From a virus (taxonomy: Duplodnaviria > Heunggongvirae > Uroviricota > Caudoviricetes): 7,513 nt of DNA. The notes under the pieces are model-generated. The model was not told where the DNA came from. It was given only the letters and a program-made list of their open reading frames with translations, and did not search any database. Each line of letters begins with the position of its first letter. Position 1 is the first letter of the stretch. Below, piece after piece: positions 164 through 7,513 of this stretch. The stretch covers positions 1 to 7,513 of IMG/VR virus record IMGVR_UViG_2609460344_000015; one strand, given 5' to 3'. The position numbers and the translations under genes are program-made.

Positions 164-2124
164 ATGGCATTTAAACACTATGACGTGGTCAGGGCGGCGT
201 CGCCGTCAGACCTTGCGGAGCGACTGACACAAAAACTGAAGGAGGGGTGGCAGCCATTTGGCAGTCCGGTGGCCATCACGCCTTATACCCTGATGCAGGC
301 CATTGCGGCGGAAGGTGATGTCACCACACCTGTGGTGGTGAAGCCGTCGGATGGAGAAGGCGCAGTTATCAGCACCACCAGCAACTCGGAGTATTACTTT
401 GTTGTTGCCCTGGCCGGGCAGTCAAACGGTATGGCGTATGGTGAAGGGCTTCCGCTGCCGGAGACATATGACCGTCCGGACCCGCGCATTAAACAGCTGG
501 CGCGTCGCAGCACTGTCACGCCGGGTGGTGCGTCCTGTAACTACAATGACATTATTCCTGCGGACCACTGCCTGCATGATGTTCAGGATTTGAGTAAGTT
601 TTCACACCCGAAAGCCAGCGCAGCTCAGTATGGATGCGTGGGGCAGGGATTACATATCGCGAAGAAATTGTTGCCGTTTATTCCGGCGAATGCCGGTATT
701 CTTCTGGTTCCGTGCTGCCGTGGTGGTTCTGCATTTTTGGCGGGCGATGAAGGTACCTTCAGCGAATCCACCGGCGCAAGCGAGACCTCGGCACGCTGGG
801 GTGTAGATAAGCCACTGTACAAGGACCTGCTTACCCGTACTCAGGCCGCACTGAAGGCTAACCCTAAAAATATTCTGCTTGCAGTGGTCTGGATGCAGGG
901 CGAGTTTGATTTGAAACAGGGTGCATACGCCACTCAGCCGGGGCTGTTTGATTCCATGGTGGAAAAATATCGTTCTGACCTGTCGGAATTCGGAGGTCAG
1001 TGTCTCGGGGGCTCTCCGTCATCGGTTCCCTGGATTTGTGGCGACACGACCTACTACTGGAAGCAGACTTATTCTTCGCAATACGATGCGGTGTATGGTG
1101 CATACAAGACGAAATCCGCAAAAAAAATCTTCTTTGTGCCGTTTAGACGGATGAAAACGGGCGAAATGTGGGTACCAACGAGCCGTCAGAAGATCCGGAT
1201 GTTGCGGATATTGGGTATTACGGAGCCGGTGGTCGAACGGACGCCAAAACCTGGACGACGGCCGACCGTAAAACGCATTTTGGATCATGGGCACGTCGTG
1301 GGATTATTTCCGACCGTCTGGCAACGGCGATTCTTGTGCATGCCGGGAGAACCGCTGAATTCATTACCGGAAAACAGCCTGATACGGTGAAGCCCACCGG
1401 ACCTTCCGGTGAAGGTACGGAGAGAGAGCCGGAAGCCCCGGTCAGTAACCGAACCCTGATGAGTCTGCTGGCGTCCGGCGAAGACCTGGCATCACAGGGC
1501 TGGCGCTATTATCACAAACCGGCGAGCGGAGACAATGTTAACAAAAACATTGCTGAAGCGGTGGTCAGTGATGCGGGGGCTACGGGAGGTAAGGCCCTGC
1601 AACTGAATAAACCGGAAAACCACATCTGGTTTCTGGAGCATGATGCAGCCGGACAGGGAGTGGAGTTACTGAAGAAGGGGGGACGTGTGAGCGTACGGTT
1701 TAAGTTGCCGGGTTCACTGGTGCCGAATCGGTTTGCCCTGGGCATTTACTGGCAGTTGTCGTCCCTGCCGGAGGGAGTGACGCTGGCAGAGGAAGGCAAC
1801 GACATGCTGATGTCCTTCTTCCTGCAGACGGATGCGACGAACCTGAACGCGATGTACCACAAGAAGCCGAATGCGAAGCTGGATACGTTCGGGGTCTTTG
1901 ATAACGGATGGCACACACTGGCTTTTGAGTTTGCCGGAAACAACAGCATTCAGGTGACGCCGGTACTGGATGAGAAACGGGGGACGCCGTTCACACTGGT
2001 GAAATCTCCGGCATCAGGGGCGGCGGACAAACTGCAACTGACAGGCATATCAAAGGCGGCGACATATACGCTGCTGATTGACAGTGTGAAGGTGGAAGTG
2101 AACAACGCGGATGCCGCGGCATGA
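164..2124 (+). pseudogene. nanS-p: Prophage sialate O-acetylesterase (NanS-p / SASA family) split by a single-nucleotide frame break near 1145-1150
   Basis: SD GGGAGGA 153-159, ATG 164. N-terminal ORF (164..1390) contains the GQSN catalytic motif (FVVALAGQSNGMAYGEG) typical of SASA/SGNH esterases. Protein-like translation continues in the frame of ORF 1168..2124, which has TAG at 1144-1146 just upstream, while the 164 frame becomes Arg-rich nonsense until its stop at 1388-1390. The two parts sum to about 650 codons, matching my recollection of about 645 aa for intact prophage NanS-p. Confidence 0.7.
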
Positions 2125-2133
2125 TAAAAAAAG

Positions 2134-2162
2134 CCGCCAGCGGCAGGAACGGAAGCTGGCGG
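2134..2162 (-). terminator. Hairpin oriented as a minus-strand intrinsic terminator just downstream of the esterase stop
   Basis: 8-bp GC-rich stem CCGCCAGC (2134-2141) / GCTGGCGG (2155-2162), 13-nt loop; A7 at 2126-2132 on + gives a U7 tract after the hairpin on the - strand. No U-tract follows on +. Confidence 0.35.
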
Positions 2163-2259
2163 AGGTAATCCCAATGGAGAATGTAAAGAAAAGATGCTTT
2201 CGTATATCGGTTTTTTAAATGAAAGCAGTTCTCATTGTCAACCATAACGGTAAGAAACT

Positions 2260-2442
2260 ATGACATTTATTCATCAGGTGATGCTGTACTTCTGTACGGC
2301 GGTCTGTGTGCTGTATCTTCTTTCGGGTGGGTACAGGGCAGTGCGCGATTTCTGGCGCAGGCAGATTGATAAAAGGGCCGCAGAGAAAATCAGTGCCAGT
2401 CAGTCAGCCGGAACAAAACCCGAAGAGCCTCTCATTCCGTAG
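2260..2442 (+). CDS. Hypothetical small membrane protein (60 aa)
   Basis: ATG 2260 preceded by weak SD (taAGAAAct); translation has one hydrophobic helix (IHQVMLYFCTAVCVLYLLSGGY) then a charged tail. Not recognised by me. Confidence 0.4.
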   Translation: MTFIHQVMLYFCTAVCVLYLLSGGYRAVRDFWRRQIDKRAAEKISASQSAGTKPEEPLIP

Positions 2443-2479
2443 CAACTTTCTTAACAACACCTTTCAACGAGAAAATACC

Positions 2480-2749
2480 ATGTCAGAAATAAAATCGCTG
2501 GTCACTGCTGAAGCAGTGAAGGAAGTCCTGCGCTCTGAAGAAGTCAGAAGCGCACTGAAACAGCAACTTCGGCAGAACCTTGAGGCGCGTCTTGATGCAG
2601 AAGTGGATGCCATTCTGGATGAACTGCTGGGCGCACCGACTGTTCCGGAGCCGGAAGGCATTGCGGATGACAGTGCTGTTTCAGATGGCGTCGGGTCTCA
2701 GCCTGATGGTAGCAGTGAGCCTCAGCCTGACGGCGAAATGATGATGTAA
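2480..2749 (+). CDS. Hypothetical acidic protein (89 aa)
   Basis: ATG 2480 in frame with listed ORF 2306..2749; the upstream extension overlaps ORF 2260..2442 so the internal ATG is preferred. Translation MSEIKSLVTAEAVKEVLRSEE... is a helical N-half followed by an Asp/Glu/Pro/Ser-rich tail. SD is weak (GAGAAAA). Confidence 0.5.
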   Translation: MSEIKSLVTAEAVKEVLRSEEVRSALKQQLRQNLEARLDAEVDAILDELLGAPTVPEPEGIADDSAVSDGVGSQPDGSSEPQPDGEMMM

Positions 2750-2824
2750 CCATGCGCAGGGGCTGTCGGTGTGAGCTGATGCCCCTCTTGTTGTTGTGAG
2801 CTTCCGGATTGCGGGAGACGGGGT

Positions 2825-3040
2825 ATGTACCAGATGGAAAAAATCACAACAGGTGTGTCATACACCACGTCAGCGGTGGGAACGGGCTACTGGTTCCTGC
2901 AGTTGCTGGACAGGGTTTCCCCGTCTCAGTGGGCGGCAATAGGCGTGCTGGGGAGTCTGCTGTTTGGTCTGTTGACGTACCTGACGAACCTGTATTTCAA
3001 AATCAGAGAGGACCGTCGTAAGACGGCACGGGGAGAGTAG
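2825..3040 (+). CDS. S: Class II holin, phage 21 S-like (pinholin type), dual-start motif
   Basis: 71 aa; starts MYQMEK with Met1 (2825) and Met4 (2834); SD GGGAGA 2813-2818. Two hydrophobic helices and the C-terminal FKIREDRRK...RGE tail that I recall from phage 21 S and Stx-phage holins. Confidence 0.9.
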
Positions 3041-3043
3041 GTG

Positions 3044-3124
3044 ATGAACCATGAAGAAATGAATCAGCGCTTCAGTCGTCTGGAAAATGAAATTGCTGAA
3101 CTGAATAAAAACTGTCGGCGCTGA
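3044..3124 (+). CDS. 26-codon leader ORF translationally coupled to the downstream moron gene
   Basis: Good SD GGGGAGAG 3031-3038 overlapping the holin stop, ATG 3044; encodes MNHEEMNQRFSRLENEIAELNKNCRR; its TGA (3122-3124) overlaps the ATG (3124-3126) of the next ORF. Confidence 0.3.
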   Translation: MNHEEMNQRFSRLENEIAELNKNCRR

Positions 3125-3600
3125 TGCCTTCTGAAGATGAAAAAAAACGCCGCGATGAGCAGTTTGCTGCGTTTGACGATTATTGTCGGAAAGTGATGAG
3201 CAGAAATCTCGCAGAGTGTTTCAGTATTCATAATGATAATTTCAGTGAGCTGGAATGGGAGTGTAACCGGCCATCCTTTGTTGTATCCGGTGATGCTGGG
3301 AAAATAACCATCTCAGAAAATGGGAAAGTAACACCTCCATCGCACCAGCACAGTGAGGAGCTCATTGAATTTGCCATTGATTACCTGAAGAACAATAAAA
3401 AGCAGGGGCTGATGAAGCGCGTTGGCCGTTGCATGGGATATCTTCAGGTAGCCGCTGAGATTGAAGCGCTGGCCAGTGGTGCTGATAAGGATGCAATTGT
3501 GCGGGAGGCTCTTCTTCGTGATTTTAATACTCCACCCTTTAAAAAAGTGCCGGCTTACTGGCTTCATCCGGGGCTGACTTATCTTAAAGTGCGTATTTAG
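3124..3600 (+). CDS. Hypothetical protein (158 aa), moron between holin and endolysin
   Basis: Uninterrupted ORF, no own SD (appears coupled to the leader ORF), no predicted membrane helix by eye, visibly lower GC than flanking lysis genes. Function unknown to me. Confidence 0.6.
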   Translation: MPSEDEKKRRDEQFAAFDDYCRKVMSRNLAECFSIHNDNFSELEWECNRPSFVVSGDAGKITISENGKVTPPSHQHSEELIEFAIDYLKNNKKQGLMKRVGRCMGYLQVAAEIEALASGADKDAIVREALLRDFNTPPFKKVPAYWLHPGLTYLKVRI

Positions 3601-3636
3601 TGGGCCAGGGACAGCGGCTGAATATTTAATATATCC

Positions 3637-4170
3637 ATGAACACCAAAATCAAATACGGCCTGTCGGCTGCCGTTCTGGCGCTGATTGCCGCTGGTGCGC
3701 CTGCGCCTGACATTCTCGACCAGTTTCTGGATGAAAAGGAAGGTAACCACACCACGGCATACCGTGATGGCGCGGGTATCTGGACCATCTGTCGCGGTGC
3801 CATTCTGGTGGATGGTAAACCTGTCGTCCCGGGCATGAAGTTGTCGAAGGAGAAATGCGACCAGGTTAACGCCATCGAACGTGATAAGGCGCTGGCATGG
3901 GTGGAGAAAAACATCAAAGTGCCATTGACCGAACCCCAGAAAGCGGGGATCGCGTCATTCTGTCCGTACAACATTGGTCCCGGTAAGTGTTTCCCGTCGA
4001 CGTTTTACAGACGAATTAATGCTGGTGATCGCAGGGGAGCATGTGAGGCGATTCGCTGGTGGATTAAGGACGGTGGCAGAGACTGCCGTATTCGTTCAAA
4101 CAACTGCTACGGTCAGGTATCCCGTCGTGACCAGGAGAGCGCGCTGGCGTGCTGGGGTATCGACAGATAA
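3637..4170 (+). CDS. R: SAR endolysin (phage lysozyme, GH24 muramidase, phage 21 R-like)
   Basis: 177 aa; N-terminal signal-anchor-release segment YGLSAAVLALIAAGAPAP followed by the lysozyme catalytic region EKEGNHTTAYRDGAGIWTICRG (Glu-Asp-Thr triad pattern). Pairs functionally with the pinholin upstream. Confidence 0.9.
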   Translation: MNTKIKYGLSAAVLALIAAGAPAPDILDQFLDEKEGNHTTAYRDGAGIWTICRGAILVDGKPVVPGMKLSKEKCDQVNAIERDKALAWVEKNIKVPLTEPQKAGIASFCPYNIGPGKCFPSTFYRRINAGDRRGACEAIRWWIKDGGRDCRIRSNNCYGQVSRRDQESALACWGIDR

Positions 4171-4260
4171 GCAGAATATTTTGCTGAAAAATAAGGCATG
4201 GCCACGCGGGCGGATAACATGAAATCCTGCGAACTGGCGAAACGTAAGTGAATAAAAGTA

Positions 4261-4299
4261 AAAACCCCGTTTGTTGGCAGCAAGCGGGGTTTTGTTTTT
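4261..4299 (+). terminator. Rho-independent terminator between endolysin and the small-ORF array
   Basis: Stem CCCCGTTTG (4265-4273) / CAAGCGGGG (4281-4289) with one G-U pair, 7-nt loop, flanked by AAAA (4261-4264) and followed by TTTTGTTTTT (4290-4299). Confidence 0.7.
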
Positions 4300-4364
4300 A
4301 TGGCAGTAAGCTATGGGAGGCTGCCTTGATTGATTTTAGCAAACTGATTAGGGAGTTGCGACTC

Positions 4365-4460
4365 ATGATTAGTCAATTACCAAACTGGAAATTTTTGCTG
4401 GTCTGGAGCATCCCTTTTTTATGGGTAGTATCCCAGTTAATTGTGGCAATTAAGGGGTAG
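4365..4460 (+). CDS. Small hydrophobic peptide P1 (31 aa)
   Basis: SD GGGAG 4351-4355, ATG 4365; MISQLPNWKFLLVWSIPFLWVVSQLIVAIKG is a single predicted TM helix. Lies in an AT-rich stretch. Confidence 0.3.
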   Translation: MISQLPNWKFLLVWSIPFLWVVSQLIVAIKG

Positions 4461-4462
4461 CT

Positions 4463-4594
4463 ATGTCAGACAAACTCATAACGCCGGCAAAGGTCCTGTG
4501 TGTGATTGTCGGTATTTCATTTTCACTAATGCTGGTTGCTCTTTTTCTGTCCCTCGCCTGGGTGATGTTGTCTTCGTCGGGGCTGCTGGGGTGA
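4463..4594 (+). CDS. Small hydrophobic peptide P2 (43 aa)
   Basis: SD AAGGGG 4452-4457, ATG 4463, starting 2 nt after the P1 stop; MSDKLITPAKVLCVIVGISFSLMLVALFLSLAWVMLSSSGLLG has one long TM helix. Confidence 0.4.
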   Translation: MSDKLITPAKVLCVIVGISFSLMLVALFLSLAWVMLSSSGLLG

Positions 4595-4596
4595 CA

Positions 4597-4713
4597 GTGA
4601 CTGATGACATCAGCAGAGCGCTGGCTTTTGCTATTAAGTGGGTGGCTGTTGGTATTGCTGTGTCTCCGATGCTGTATGGGCTGGCTAAACTGGTCATTGC
4701 GCTGAAATCGTGA
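4597..4713 (+). CDS. Small hydrophobic peptide P3 (about 38 aa, GTG start), paralogue of P4
   Basis: GTG 4597 (alternative GTG 4591 overlapping the P2 stop); VTDDISRALAFAIKWVAVGIAVSPMLYGLAKLVIALKS. Aligns with P4 across the N-terminus and helix. Start codon uncertain. Confidence 0.3.
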   Translation: MTDDISRALAFAIKWVAVGIAVSPMLYGLAKLVIALKS

Positions 4714-4724
4714 ACTTTAAAAAG

Positions 4725-4811
4725 ATGAGTGCTGAACTTATTCGGGCAATGGCATTTGCCATTCGTATTGTGGCCATTGCTGTTCTGGTCTGGGCAATCC
4801 GTTGGTGGTGA
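4725..4811 (+). CDS. Small hydrophobic peptide P4 (28 aa), paralogue of P3
   Basis: ATG 4725; [28 protein letters not shown]; stop TGA 4809-4811 lies 1 nt before the Rz ATG 4813. SD weak. Confidence 0.3.
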
Positions 4812-4812
4812 T

Positions 4813-5280
4813 ATGAACCGTGTTCTGTGTGTGGTGATTATTGTCCTGCTGGTAGCCTGTGGTGTGCTTAGTCTGGGGCTGAATCATTACCGCGATAACG
4901 CCATCACCTACAAAGCGCAGCGCGATAAAAAAGTCAGTGAGCTGAAACTGGCGAATGCCACTATTACTGATATGCAGCAGCGCCAGCGCGATGTTGCTGC
5001 GCTCGATGCAAAATACTCGAGGGAATTAGCCGATGCGAGAGCTGAAAATGAAACTCTGCGTGCTGATGTTGCCGCTGGTCGTAAGCGCCTGCGGGTCAAC
5101 GCCACCTGCCCCGGTACCGTGCGTGAAGCCACCGGCACCTCCAGCGTGGATAATGCAACCGGCCCCCGACTGGCAGACACCGCTGAACGGGATTATTTCA
5201 TCCTCAGAGAACGGTTGATGACAATGCAGAAGCAGCTGGAAGGGGCGCAGGAATATATCCGCACTCAGTGCCTGAAATAA
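4813..5280 (+). CDS. Rz: Rz i-spanin (inner-membrane spanin subunit)
   Basis: 155 aa; N-terminal TM helix then [16 protein letters not shown]...[16 protein letters not shown]...[24 protein letters not shown], closely matching lambda Rz as I recall it. Listed ORF 4729..5280 is an upstream GTG extension; ATG 4813 gives the lambda-like N-terminus. Confidence 0.9.
5033..5218 (+). CDS. Rz1: Rz1 o-spanin (outer-membrane lipoprotein spanin), embedded in the +1 frame of Rz
   Basis: 61 aa; lipoprotein signal with lipobox LVVSAC, Pro-rich mature part [32 protein letters not shown] matching lambda Rz1 as I recall it; entirely inside Rz. Confidence 0.85.
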
Positions 5281-5322
5281 GTTTTGTTGATGCGCCGTAT
5301 CGTCGCTGTATTCCCTCATTAA

Positions 5323-6227
<905 letters not shown>

Positions 6228-6234
6228 GGAGGTC

Positions 6235-6843
6235 ATGGTGGATAAGGGAAAAGAGATTATTGCAGTACGAAATGCAGCCTGCAACGAATACGGCGGGATA
6301 AACTGTGAGGTGCAGTTTGAAGATGCGGTCAATGAAAAAGGAGAGCAGGTATGGCTGCCGTATACCGCAACGGAAACGGATAATACAGAACACGGAAAAG
6401 CCTTGTGGTCGGGGCTGACAGCAGGAACATACGGAAGTGTGAGTGCCTTTGTTGCCACGGAAGCAATACTGGAAGCGGCAAAGGCGGCGAAAAGGGAAGA
6501 GATTAATATCTGGCGTGATGTGCAGGAGAATATGGAATACGTGATGGAATTCAACGGAAGGAACTGGGATTACGGCAAGAAGACGTTGTCCAGGATAAGC
6601 ACGACACGACTGATGGCAGAGAACAACCGTCTTCCGGAAGGGTTTGCCTGGACGGACGGGGATAATAATGTGGTGCCGGTAACGGCGGCGGAGATAATTG
6701 CGCTGGCAGATGCGACAGAGCAGGCGATGTTTGCGAAAGGTGTGGAGATTAATACACGTCAGCTTCAGATGAAAGCAGAGGTTGAGGCGCTGACAGAGCT
6801 GAAGGCGATCCGCAGTTATGTTGTCGGATGGCCTGCAAGCTGA
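6235..6843 (+). CDS. tfa: Tail fibre assembly protein (Tfa / Caudovirales tail-fibre chaperone family)
   Basis: 202 aa, immediately downstream of the tail-fibre gene; SD AGGAGG 6227-6232 overlaps the upstream stop (spacing to ATG 6235 is short, GTG 6238 is an alternative). Contains LPEGFAWTDG, resembling the LPENFTWLSPGG motif of lambda Tfa as I recall it, and a C-terminal ...VVGWPAS like the EWP ending of Tfa proteins. Confidence 0.65.
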   Translation: MVDKGKEIIAVRNAACNEYGGINCEVQFEDAVNEKGEQVWLPYTATETDNTEHGKALWSGLTAGTYGSVSAFVATEAILEAAKAAKREEINIWRDVQENMEYVMEFNGRNWDYGKKTLSRISTTRLMAENNRLPEGFAWTDGDNNVVPVTAAEIIALADATEQAMFAKGVEINTRQLQMKAEVEALTELKAIRSYVVGWPAS

Positions 6844-6845
6844 GT

Positions 6846-6873
6846 AAAAAAAACGGGACCACGGCCAGTCCCG
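6846..6873 (-). terminator. Intrinsic terminator for the minus-strand ykgJ-like gene (also caps tfa on +)
   Basis: Stem CGGGAC (6854-6859) / GTCCCG (6868-6873), 8-nt loop; A8 at 6846-6853 on + becomes a U8 tract directly after the hairpin on the - strand. On + only a weaker T-run follows (6884-6889). Confidence 0.5.
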
Positions 6874-6987
6874 GAACCATGAGTTTTTTAGGGTATTAGT
6901 TTGTTATCATAATTAGCGTGCTAAGTATGCCGTATCAGGCTGATTAGTGAAGTGATGTTGTTCGCATTTTTGCACGGCGGAGAATAT

Positions 6988-7317
6988 TCAGATTTTGGGA
7001 AATCCATATTTTTCCCGTGCGCGGTTACATGCTTCATTCGCGATGCCATTTTCGCCGGACATTGCGAATTCCCTGCATGTGGACGGACGGTTTTTGTAAA
7101 CAGAGCAATATGCGTTTTCACCGGGGGGGCCGGCCAGAGCGACACATCGGGGATTTTTCTGATTGGTGCCGCGCATACAGCGATGAAAAGGAGATATTTG
7201 CTCAGTGAGACTGACCGGGACGTTTCCGCCAGCATCATCGGCTTCAGCCCAGTAAAAAGAGACGCGGAAAAATGCACAACAGGCACCACACGTCATGCAT
7301 GGATTCGGATTGTTCAT
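6988..7317 (-). CDS. ykgJ: YkgJ-family cysteine-cluster protein (CxxCxxCC putative zinc/iron-chelating domain), chromosomal
   Basis: Minus-strand ORF; from the internal Met the product [31 protein letters not shown]... is 109 aa with the CxxCGxCC signature. The 19-codon upstream extension to ATG 7374 ([13 protein letters not shown]...) is encoded by a U-rich hairpin and looks non-coding. No clear SD at 7317, so the start is not certain. Confidence 0.7.
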
Positions 7318-7334
7318 TTTTATACTATTTGTTG

Positions 7335-7370
7335 TTTTTTCAGCGATCAGATAAAAGGGCGCTGAAAAAA
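7335..7370 (-). promoter_or_regulatory. Hairpin in the probable 5' UTR of the ykgJ-like gene
   Basis: 11-bp inverted repeat TTTTTTCAGCG (7335-7345) / CGCTGAAAAAA (7360-7370) with 14-nt loop, 18-53 nt upstream of the chosen start on the - strand. Confidence 0.3.
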
Positions 7371-7387
7371 ACATTCTCCAAAATTAG

Positions 7388-7393
7388 ATTATA
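7388..7393 (-). promoter_or_regulatory. Candidate -10 hexamer (TATAAT on - strand) for the ykgJ-like gene
   Basis: Reverse complement of 7388-7393 is a perfect TATAAT with G at -14; no good TTGACA-like -35 at 16-18 bp spacing. Sequence match only. Confidence 0.3.
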
Positions 7394-7415
7394 ACTATTT
7401 GATTTTATGGATAGA

Positions 7416-7449
7416 GGCATGCTTTTTACGAAAAAGTAAAAAGCATGCC
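7416..7449. promoter_or_regulatory. Perfect 12-bp inverted repeat (GGCATGCTTTTT / AAAAAGCATGCC) with 10-bp spacer upstream of the ykgJ-like promoter region
   Basis: Arms at 7416-7427 and 7438-7449. Sits where a -35 or activator site would be for the candidate -10; could be an operator or the terminator of the upstream minus-strand gene beyond the window end. Confidence 0.4.
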
Positions 7450-7513
7450 AAATTTGCCATTAACTCTTTGAATATTCAGCACTAATCATCTATTTCGGTT
7501 GCCTTCTTATTCA

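Follow-up and report, generated by a model that had tools for sequence, protein, structure and literature searches.

The stretch between the holin gene and the lysozyme gene of an Escherichia coli prophage contains two overlapping open reading frames (ORFs), and the question raised by this locus is whether they represent a leader peptide and a gene, the two parts of a switch, or the remains of a single gene. The window, i.e., the whole stretch of 7,513 nucleotides that was analyzed, is the entire 7,513-base contig JNRD01000120.1 of the E. coli draft assembly GCA_000704505.1, and a lambdoid, Stx-phage-like prophage is represented in it by its late region. From the comparison with homologues and with other prophages at the same chromosomal position we conclude, with a probability of roughly 0.85, that the two ORFs are the halves of one 185-codon gene that became frameshifted when a decaying E. 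coli prophage lost one A. The features of the locus and its surroundings are listed in Table 1.

Table 1. Coordinates of the broken gene, its neighbors and the deletion scars in the window.
Feature	Position	Strand	Remarks or basis
SASA-family carbohydrate esterase gene (DUF1737, SASA, DUF6645), frameshifted near 1145	164..2124	+	
DUF1378	2260-2442		
DUF826	2480-2749		
Class II holin (PF04971), directly upstream of the broken gene	2825..3040	+	
5' fragment, 26 codons (MNHEEMNQRFSRLENEIAELNK, then out-of-frame NCRR) + TGA	3044..3124	+	ORF lister start GTG 3041
A5 run, site of the one-base deletion; ancestral A6 encodes K22-K23 of LNKKLS	3107..3111	+	alignment with ST866, OkiPb01678 and EC4115; run-length tallies
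TGATG: overlap of the 5' fragment's stop with an ATG that is internal in the intact protein (M28) and comes first in the 3' fragment	3122..3126	+	
3' fragment, 158 codons, with the whole conserved C-terminal module (EKKRRDEQF to end)	3124..3600	+	
Second homopolymer of the same gene, A8	3140..3147	+	alignment, length variants
Phage lysozyme (PF00959), directly downstream of the broken gene	3637..4170	+	
Rz-type lysis protein	4813-5280		
Deletion scars	5373..5486	+	two junctions

Reading frames at the A5 run and in the homologues

The sequence at 3104-3113 reads AATAAAAACT and includes a run of five A (A5). The upstream ORF can start at GTG 3041 or at ATG 3044 and ends at the TGA at 3122-3124, where this stop overlaps the ATG at 3124-3126 that opens the 158-codon ORF; the latter lies in the -1 frame relative to the 5' fragment. 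Adding one A to the run produces a continuous ORF that reads ...NEIAELNKKLSALMPSEDEKKRR..., so that the ORF at 3044-3124 and the ORF at 3124-3600 are fused, as had been pointed out in an earlier, sequence-only reading of this DNA. That reading was right about the fusion and slightly off in its length: instead of 184 codons, the repaired ORF has 185 codons plus a stop when counted from ATG 3044, and 186 when counted from GTG 3041. The equivalent of ATG 3044 is the start annotated by RefSeq in the homologues, and a GGAG is present about 8 nt upstream of it. The frameshift deprives the 158-codon ORF of only the first 27 residues of the protein and leaves its C-terminal module complete.

The product of the repaired ORF is exactly the recorded protein P0001, which is found on 147 contigs, and because of this identity the fusion cannot be a chance juxtaposition of two frames. 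It differs by one residue from WP_062891728.1 of E. coli ST866. In ST866 and in O157:H7 EC4115 (WP_001015158.1), RefSeq annotates one 558-nt coding sequence for a 185-aa hypothetical protein between holin and lysozyme; the order of the three genes is the same as in the window, whereas the window copy is one A shorter and split into a 26-codon and a 158-codon ORF. At the position of the A5 run, alignment showed six A (A6) in ST866, OkiPb01678 and EC4115, and the difference between A5 and A6 was the sole gap in 3,078 aligned bases between the window and ST866.

For the 816 bases from holin to lysozyme, matches covering at least 80% of this segment were obtained in 687 complete E. coli genomes. 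A 76-nt probe spanning the run found matches in 231 complete E. coli genomes; an exact A5 copy would reach 99% identity, and none of the 231 did so, 228 of them falling into the band from 95 to 99%. Among the matches listed, all were 77 nt long at 98.7% identity, as expected for A6. A pattern permitting A5 to A8 was run over IMG/VR and metagenome contigs and returned A6 in 26 of 29 IMG/VR contigs and A5 in the remaining three, while all four metagenome contigs had A6; A7 was found in none of these 29 and four contigs. A scan of species-representative genomes found nothing at this site in other species. SS52, which gave an 818-nt match, was considered as another frameshifted copy and rejected, as its extra base is intergenic and its gene intact.

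Every homologue examined has a single ORF across the site. The alignment of homologues, which the sequence-only reading had named as the way to check its proposal, thus showed one uninterrupted ORF (185 aa in RefSeq) and no two-ORF layout, in agreement with its suggestion of a frameshifted version of one gene. The same reading had set a leader stop conserved among homologues against that suggestion. The stop/start overlap sequence GCGCTGATG occurs in none of the divergent homologues, which have GCAGTGGCG or GTACTGGTG instead, and therefore the leader stop is not conserved. What is conserved is the protein: L20, N21, K22, K23 and S25 are invariant among 24 aligned homologues with identities as low as 56%, and the A5 break falls within this LNKKLS, which in the N-terminal helix is the most strongly conserved motif. 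The codons AAT AAA AAA are retained in divergent homologues; one subgroup has AAT AAG AAA, and hence the homopolymer as such is not conserved.

The A8 run is also variable, with A9 in OkiPb01678 and A7 in the IMG/VR contig L041, and in other alleles it is interrupted by C (GCAAAAAAAC, GCAAACAAAC). It lies exactly at the point where the alternative N-terminal parts found in the family meet the conserved C-terminal module, which starts here (EKKRRDEQF...). The OkiPb01678 copy is itself annotated as a pseudogene (ACZ5Q8_RS17465, 'hypothetical protein, frameshifted'). It is the same gene with the same haplotype and it was likewise changed by one base in a homopolymer, but there the change is from A8 to A9, 28 nt further downstream, and at the site of the window's A5 run it has A6. 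Unlike the prophage of the window, that of OkiPb01678 retains its terminase genes.

A prophage remnant next to potB

The A5 run is shared by the window, E. coli DEC6E (L006), the assembly GCA_907175995.1 (L007) and the IMG/VR contigs L017, L021 and L041. All A5 sequences have an identical gene haplotype, and this haplotype is the same in A5 and A6 carriers. The gene sequence is therefore uninformative as to the number of origins, and the case for a single origin is made by the common chromosomal locus. L017 and L021 contain, without gaps, the junction between the DNA downstream of Rz and a gpJ-like gene (Rz|gpJ') as well as the right-hand flank of the window. DEC6E and L041 have the right-hand flank in common with the window at 99.8% identity and have additionally lost 3778-6237; in DEC6E most of the lysozyme gene is gone. 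Wherever the flanks could be read, the A5 sequences sit in one potB-adjacent prophage remnant, and the Rz|gpJ' junction was found in none of the A6 loci compared. Since several distinct assemblies share A5 at one remnant, the missing base is a real, inherited one-base deletion. The most economical reading of these positions would be a single change from A6 to A5 in the ancestor of the remnant, followed by vertical inheritance. The exact 158-aa product of the 3' fragment (P0002) is present on six contigs, two of which are contig-edge truncations with A6.

L017 and L021 are both filed under IMG genome 2609460344, and each holds an equivalent of window positions 2260-7513, host-side flank included. 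Their identity to the window is 99.2% and 99.6%, and their esterase alleles differ, which suggests a mixed or duplicated data set.

Two deletion junctions mark the remnant. At 5373/5374 the DNA downstream of Rz is joined to the 3' end (the last ~40 codons) of the gpJ-like gene, and near 5484-5486 this gpJ' piece runs, out of frame, into a collagen-like tail-fibre gene at residue ~166 of the latter. The tail-fibre piece is followed by a DUF4376 gene, after which come two host genes, ykgJ-like and potB. The prophage in the window is missing all its terminase, head and tail genes. The same potB-side end is found in ST866 as part of a complete prophage that has tape-measure, J, lom and tail-fibre genes, and the window can therefore be identified as a gutted prophage remnant. 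The esterase gene is broken as well: one T was lost near 1145, outside any homopolymer, changing TTTATGAC to TTTAGAC, and the protein of 653 aa in relatives is divided over a 408-aa and a 318-aa ORF. The 408-aa fragment was found on five contigs, including two sister isolates and two metagenome contigs.

Downstream of the junctions, 8.9 copies of a 45-nt repeat encoding Gly-X-Y collagen-like triplets occupy 5556-5956. These triplets are in frame with the tail-fibre gene, whereas the listed ORF 5431-6171 is in another frame. Near 6841, at the extreme 3' end of the DUF4376 ORF, the window differs from DEC6E by a single base (GCT-GAG vs GCTAGAG), just before an A8 run at 6846-6853.

The late genes are probably not expressed in this lineage. 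In L021, the Q antiterminator ORF (PF03589, within 8299-9488) is truncated by a fragment of a Mutator-family insertion sequence (IS); it runs into a truncated transposase gene of this family on the opposite strand, and its last ~84 codons are IS-derived. Because Q is truncated, the late operon is probably untranscribed in L021. The window stops short of Q and pR', and for the window itself a silent late operon appears probable by comparison with these relatives. A promoter scan of positions 2000-4300 returned no sigma-70-like site.

We propose that the ancestral A6 (AAT AAA AAA, N-K-K) lost one A in the common ancestor of a few E. coli strains, by which the frame would shift after codon 22 and meet a stop four codons on. 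The loss would have occurred in the potB-adjacent prophage that lacks the terminase, head and tail genes. As the morphogenesis genes are deleted and Q is truncated in a relative, the late genes were probably free of selection, and the frameshift may be regarded as a further step of neutral decay. The gene has the properties of a frameshift pseudogene: its orthologues are uninterrupted, one indel separates it from the closest intact copies, and the lesion is present in several assemblies. It is an ordinary pseudogene and no genetic switch. Positions 3044-3600 should accordingly be annotated as a single frameshifted pseudogene, neither as a leader peptide plus a gene nor as the 134-aa or 158-aa proteins of the databases. 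The locus is an example of how the loss of one base in a short homopolymer can mimic a leader/ORF layout, and it has little importance beyond annotation.

Identity to the DEC6E-type relatives falls sharply left of 2260. The sister isolate L011 (JNRB01000114.1) contains the same frameshifted esterase-to-holin segment with a different downstream region, in which an intact 330-aa DUF1327 gene is followed by the lysozyme gene and then by terminase. The strain probably holds two prophages with a common esterase-to-holin segment. Because L011 links this segment to another downstream region, the leftmost 2.2 kb of this contig of the window may represent a collapsed repeat, the placement of which by the assembler would be ambiguous.

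Other explanations of the two-frame layout

The 3' fragment might still be translated. The stop of the 26-codon fragment overlaps the next start (UGAUG), an arrangement that could permit reinitiation and would yield an N-terminally truncated, active product of 158 codons. This proposal, which we consider improbable, is compatible with the account given above of how the two ORFs arose by loss of an A. The TGATG overlap is real, and the module from EKKRRDEQF onward is common to all architectures of the family (forms of 185, 213, 296 and 329 aa). The 329-aa long form is likewise split in many genomes, with the C-terminal part as an ORF of its own, and the collection has the 134-aa product in 458 of its blocks. 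Further, five of the six A5 sequences have an unmutated 158-codon ORF, which is expected if the mutation is recent and also compatible with a retained function. In the sixth sequence, L041, a second frameshift (A8 to A7) lies within this ORF. Against reinitiation, no Shine-Dalgarno-like sequence precedes ATG 3124, and the overlap itself is an accident of the codons for A-L-M that is not found in the divergent homologues. The helix that would be missing from the product bears the invariant LNKKLS and is the most confidently modelled part of the protein, and the late operon from which it would have to be made is probably silent. If the truncated product were made nevertheless, the "pseudogene" would still yield an active protein affecting lysis or host physiology. 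A related and equally doubtful view would regard the C-terminal module of ~150 residues as an autonomous unit that has been repeatedly uncoupled from its N-terminal partners, by the frameshift in the window and by the splitting of the 329-aa DUF1327 fusion in hundreds of other genomes.

It is very improbable that the missing A is an error of sequencing or assembly in a draft contig and that the living strain has an intact gene. In favor of an error, the window is a short draft-assembly contig, homopolymers are classic sites of error, and a second single-base frameshift, that of the esterase gene, is present in the same contig. However, other assemblies supply at least four more distinct sequences with A5 (L006/L007, L017, L021 and L041), and with five distinct sequences sharing A5 a homopolymer read error, or a systematic miscall, is unlikely. 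The frameshift of the esterase gene lies outside homopolymers and is seen again in the sister isolates and two metagenome contigs, and no further indels were present across 3 kb in the comparison with ST866.

Hardly any credence can be given to the remaining explanation, that the run of A acts as a switch, either by phase variation or by slippage of RNA polymerase or the ribosome on AAAAAC (-1) that restores the full-length protein. The sequence-only reading had raised such a slippage-prone switch between a short peptide and a long protein, and this part of it was not borne out. A -1 shift on AAA AAC would indeed give ...ELNKNLSALM..., one residue off the intact protein, and the A8 run in the same gene also varies in length (A9, A7). 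The run in question, however, is A6 everywhere outside one lineage, with no A7 found, and in one subgroup the same residues are specified by AAT AAG AAA, in which there is no run. Contingency loci and transcriptional slippage depend on runs longer than A5 or A6 to vary at a useful rate, and both lengths are below those of tracts with appreciable slippage of DNA or RNA polymerase. As for the ribosome, the zero-frame AAU AAA AAC provides U AAA AAC, which is not the canonical X XXY YYZ, and the P-site tRNA would have to re-pair on UAA. The 88 nt downstream (3113-3200) had a minimum free energy of -24.4 kcal/mol, no better than that of shuffled sequences (-20.1 ± 3.0 kcal/mol, z = -1.44), and no Rfam family was detected in the window. 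The absence of A7 and of a stimulatory RNA structure thus leaves a slippage switch without support. The two-frame layout is conserved in no homologue, all of which are single-frame. In a phase-variable locus ON and OFF lengths are intermixed among close copies; here A5 was confined to one chromosomal locus and lineage. The locus resembles homopolymer contingency loci and programmed frameshift sites in having a homopolymer at the junction of two ORFs in different frames, and it is unlike them in having a short run whose length does not vary among relatives, a split restricted to one lineage and no stimulatory element.

The family of the intact gene

The intact gene is an accessory gene of lambdoid prophages. 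It was always located between the class II holin gene and the lysozyme gene (window, L001, L003, L045-L052). The repaired protein, like the 185-aa proteins of ST866 and EC4115, belongs to PHROG 1085, a family of unknown function, which it matches with E = 3.7e-113 (residues 1-185 to profile positions 117-296). A Pfam scan of the repaired protein returned only a sub-threshold match to Relaxase_C, and DUF1327 (PF07041) was absent; NCBIfam and PADLOC gave no significant family, and a profile search of PDB sequences returned nothing below E = 0.27. The family is narrow: in an exhaustive HMMER search of 1.84 billion proteins it comprised 36 representative clusters, many of them fragments. An AlphaFold2 model built from a 24-sequence alignment (mean pLDDT 51, pTM 0.24) was confident only in two N-terminal helices.

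Longer relatives of 287-329 aa carry DUF1327 (PF07041, YdfR) in front of the sequence of the window gene. These YdfR-family long forms occupy the same slot between holin and lysozyme, and the window gene corresponds to their C-terminal ~180 residues; compared with YdfR of the Qin prophage, it is without the DUF1327 domain. YdfR of E. coli K-12 binds RNase E's catalytic domain and co-purifies with RNA (PMC13232886). Because these data concern a domain that is absent here, they are uninformative on the function of the window protein. As a narrow family intercalated between holin and endolysin in E. coli lambdoid prophages, the gene may merit a functional test in an intact phage.

The long form is frequently broken. 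In a very common allele, a net -1 indel near codon 159-163 splits the 329/330-aa DUF1327 long form, and in L055-L064 and L005 the gene order is S, a 162-aa DUF1327 ORF, a 134-aa ORF and R. RefSeq treats the N-terminal half of the split long form as an incomplete YdfR pseudogene. The broken long form appears to be commoner than the intact one (P0004 on 64 contigs; 134-aa product in 458 blocks).
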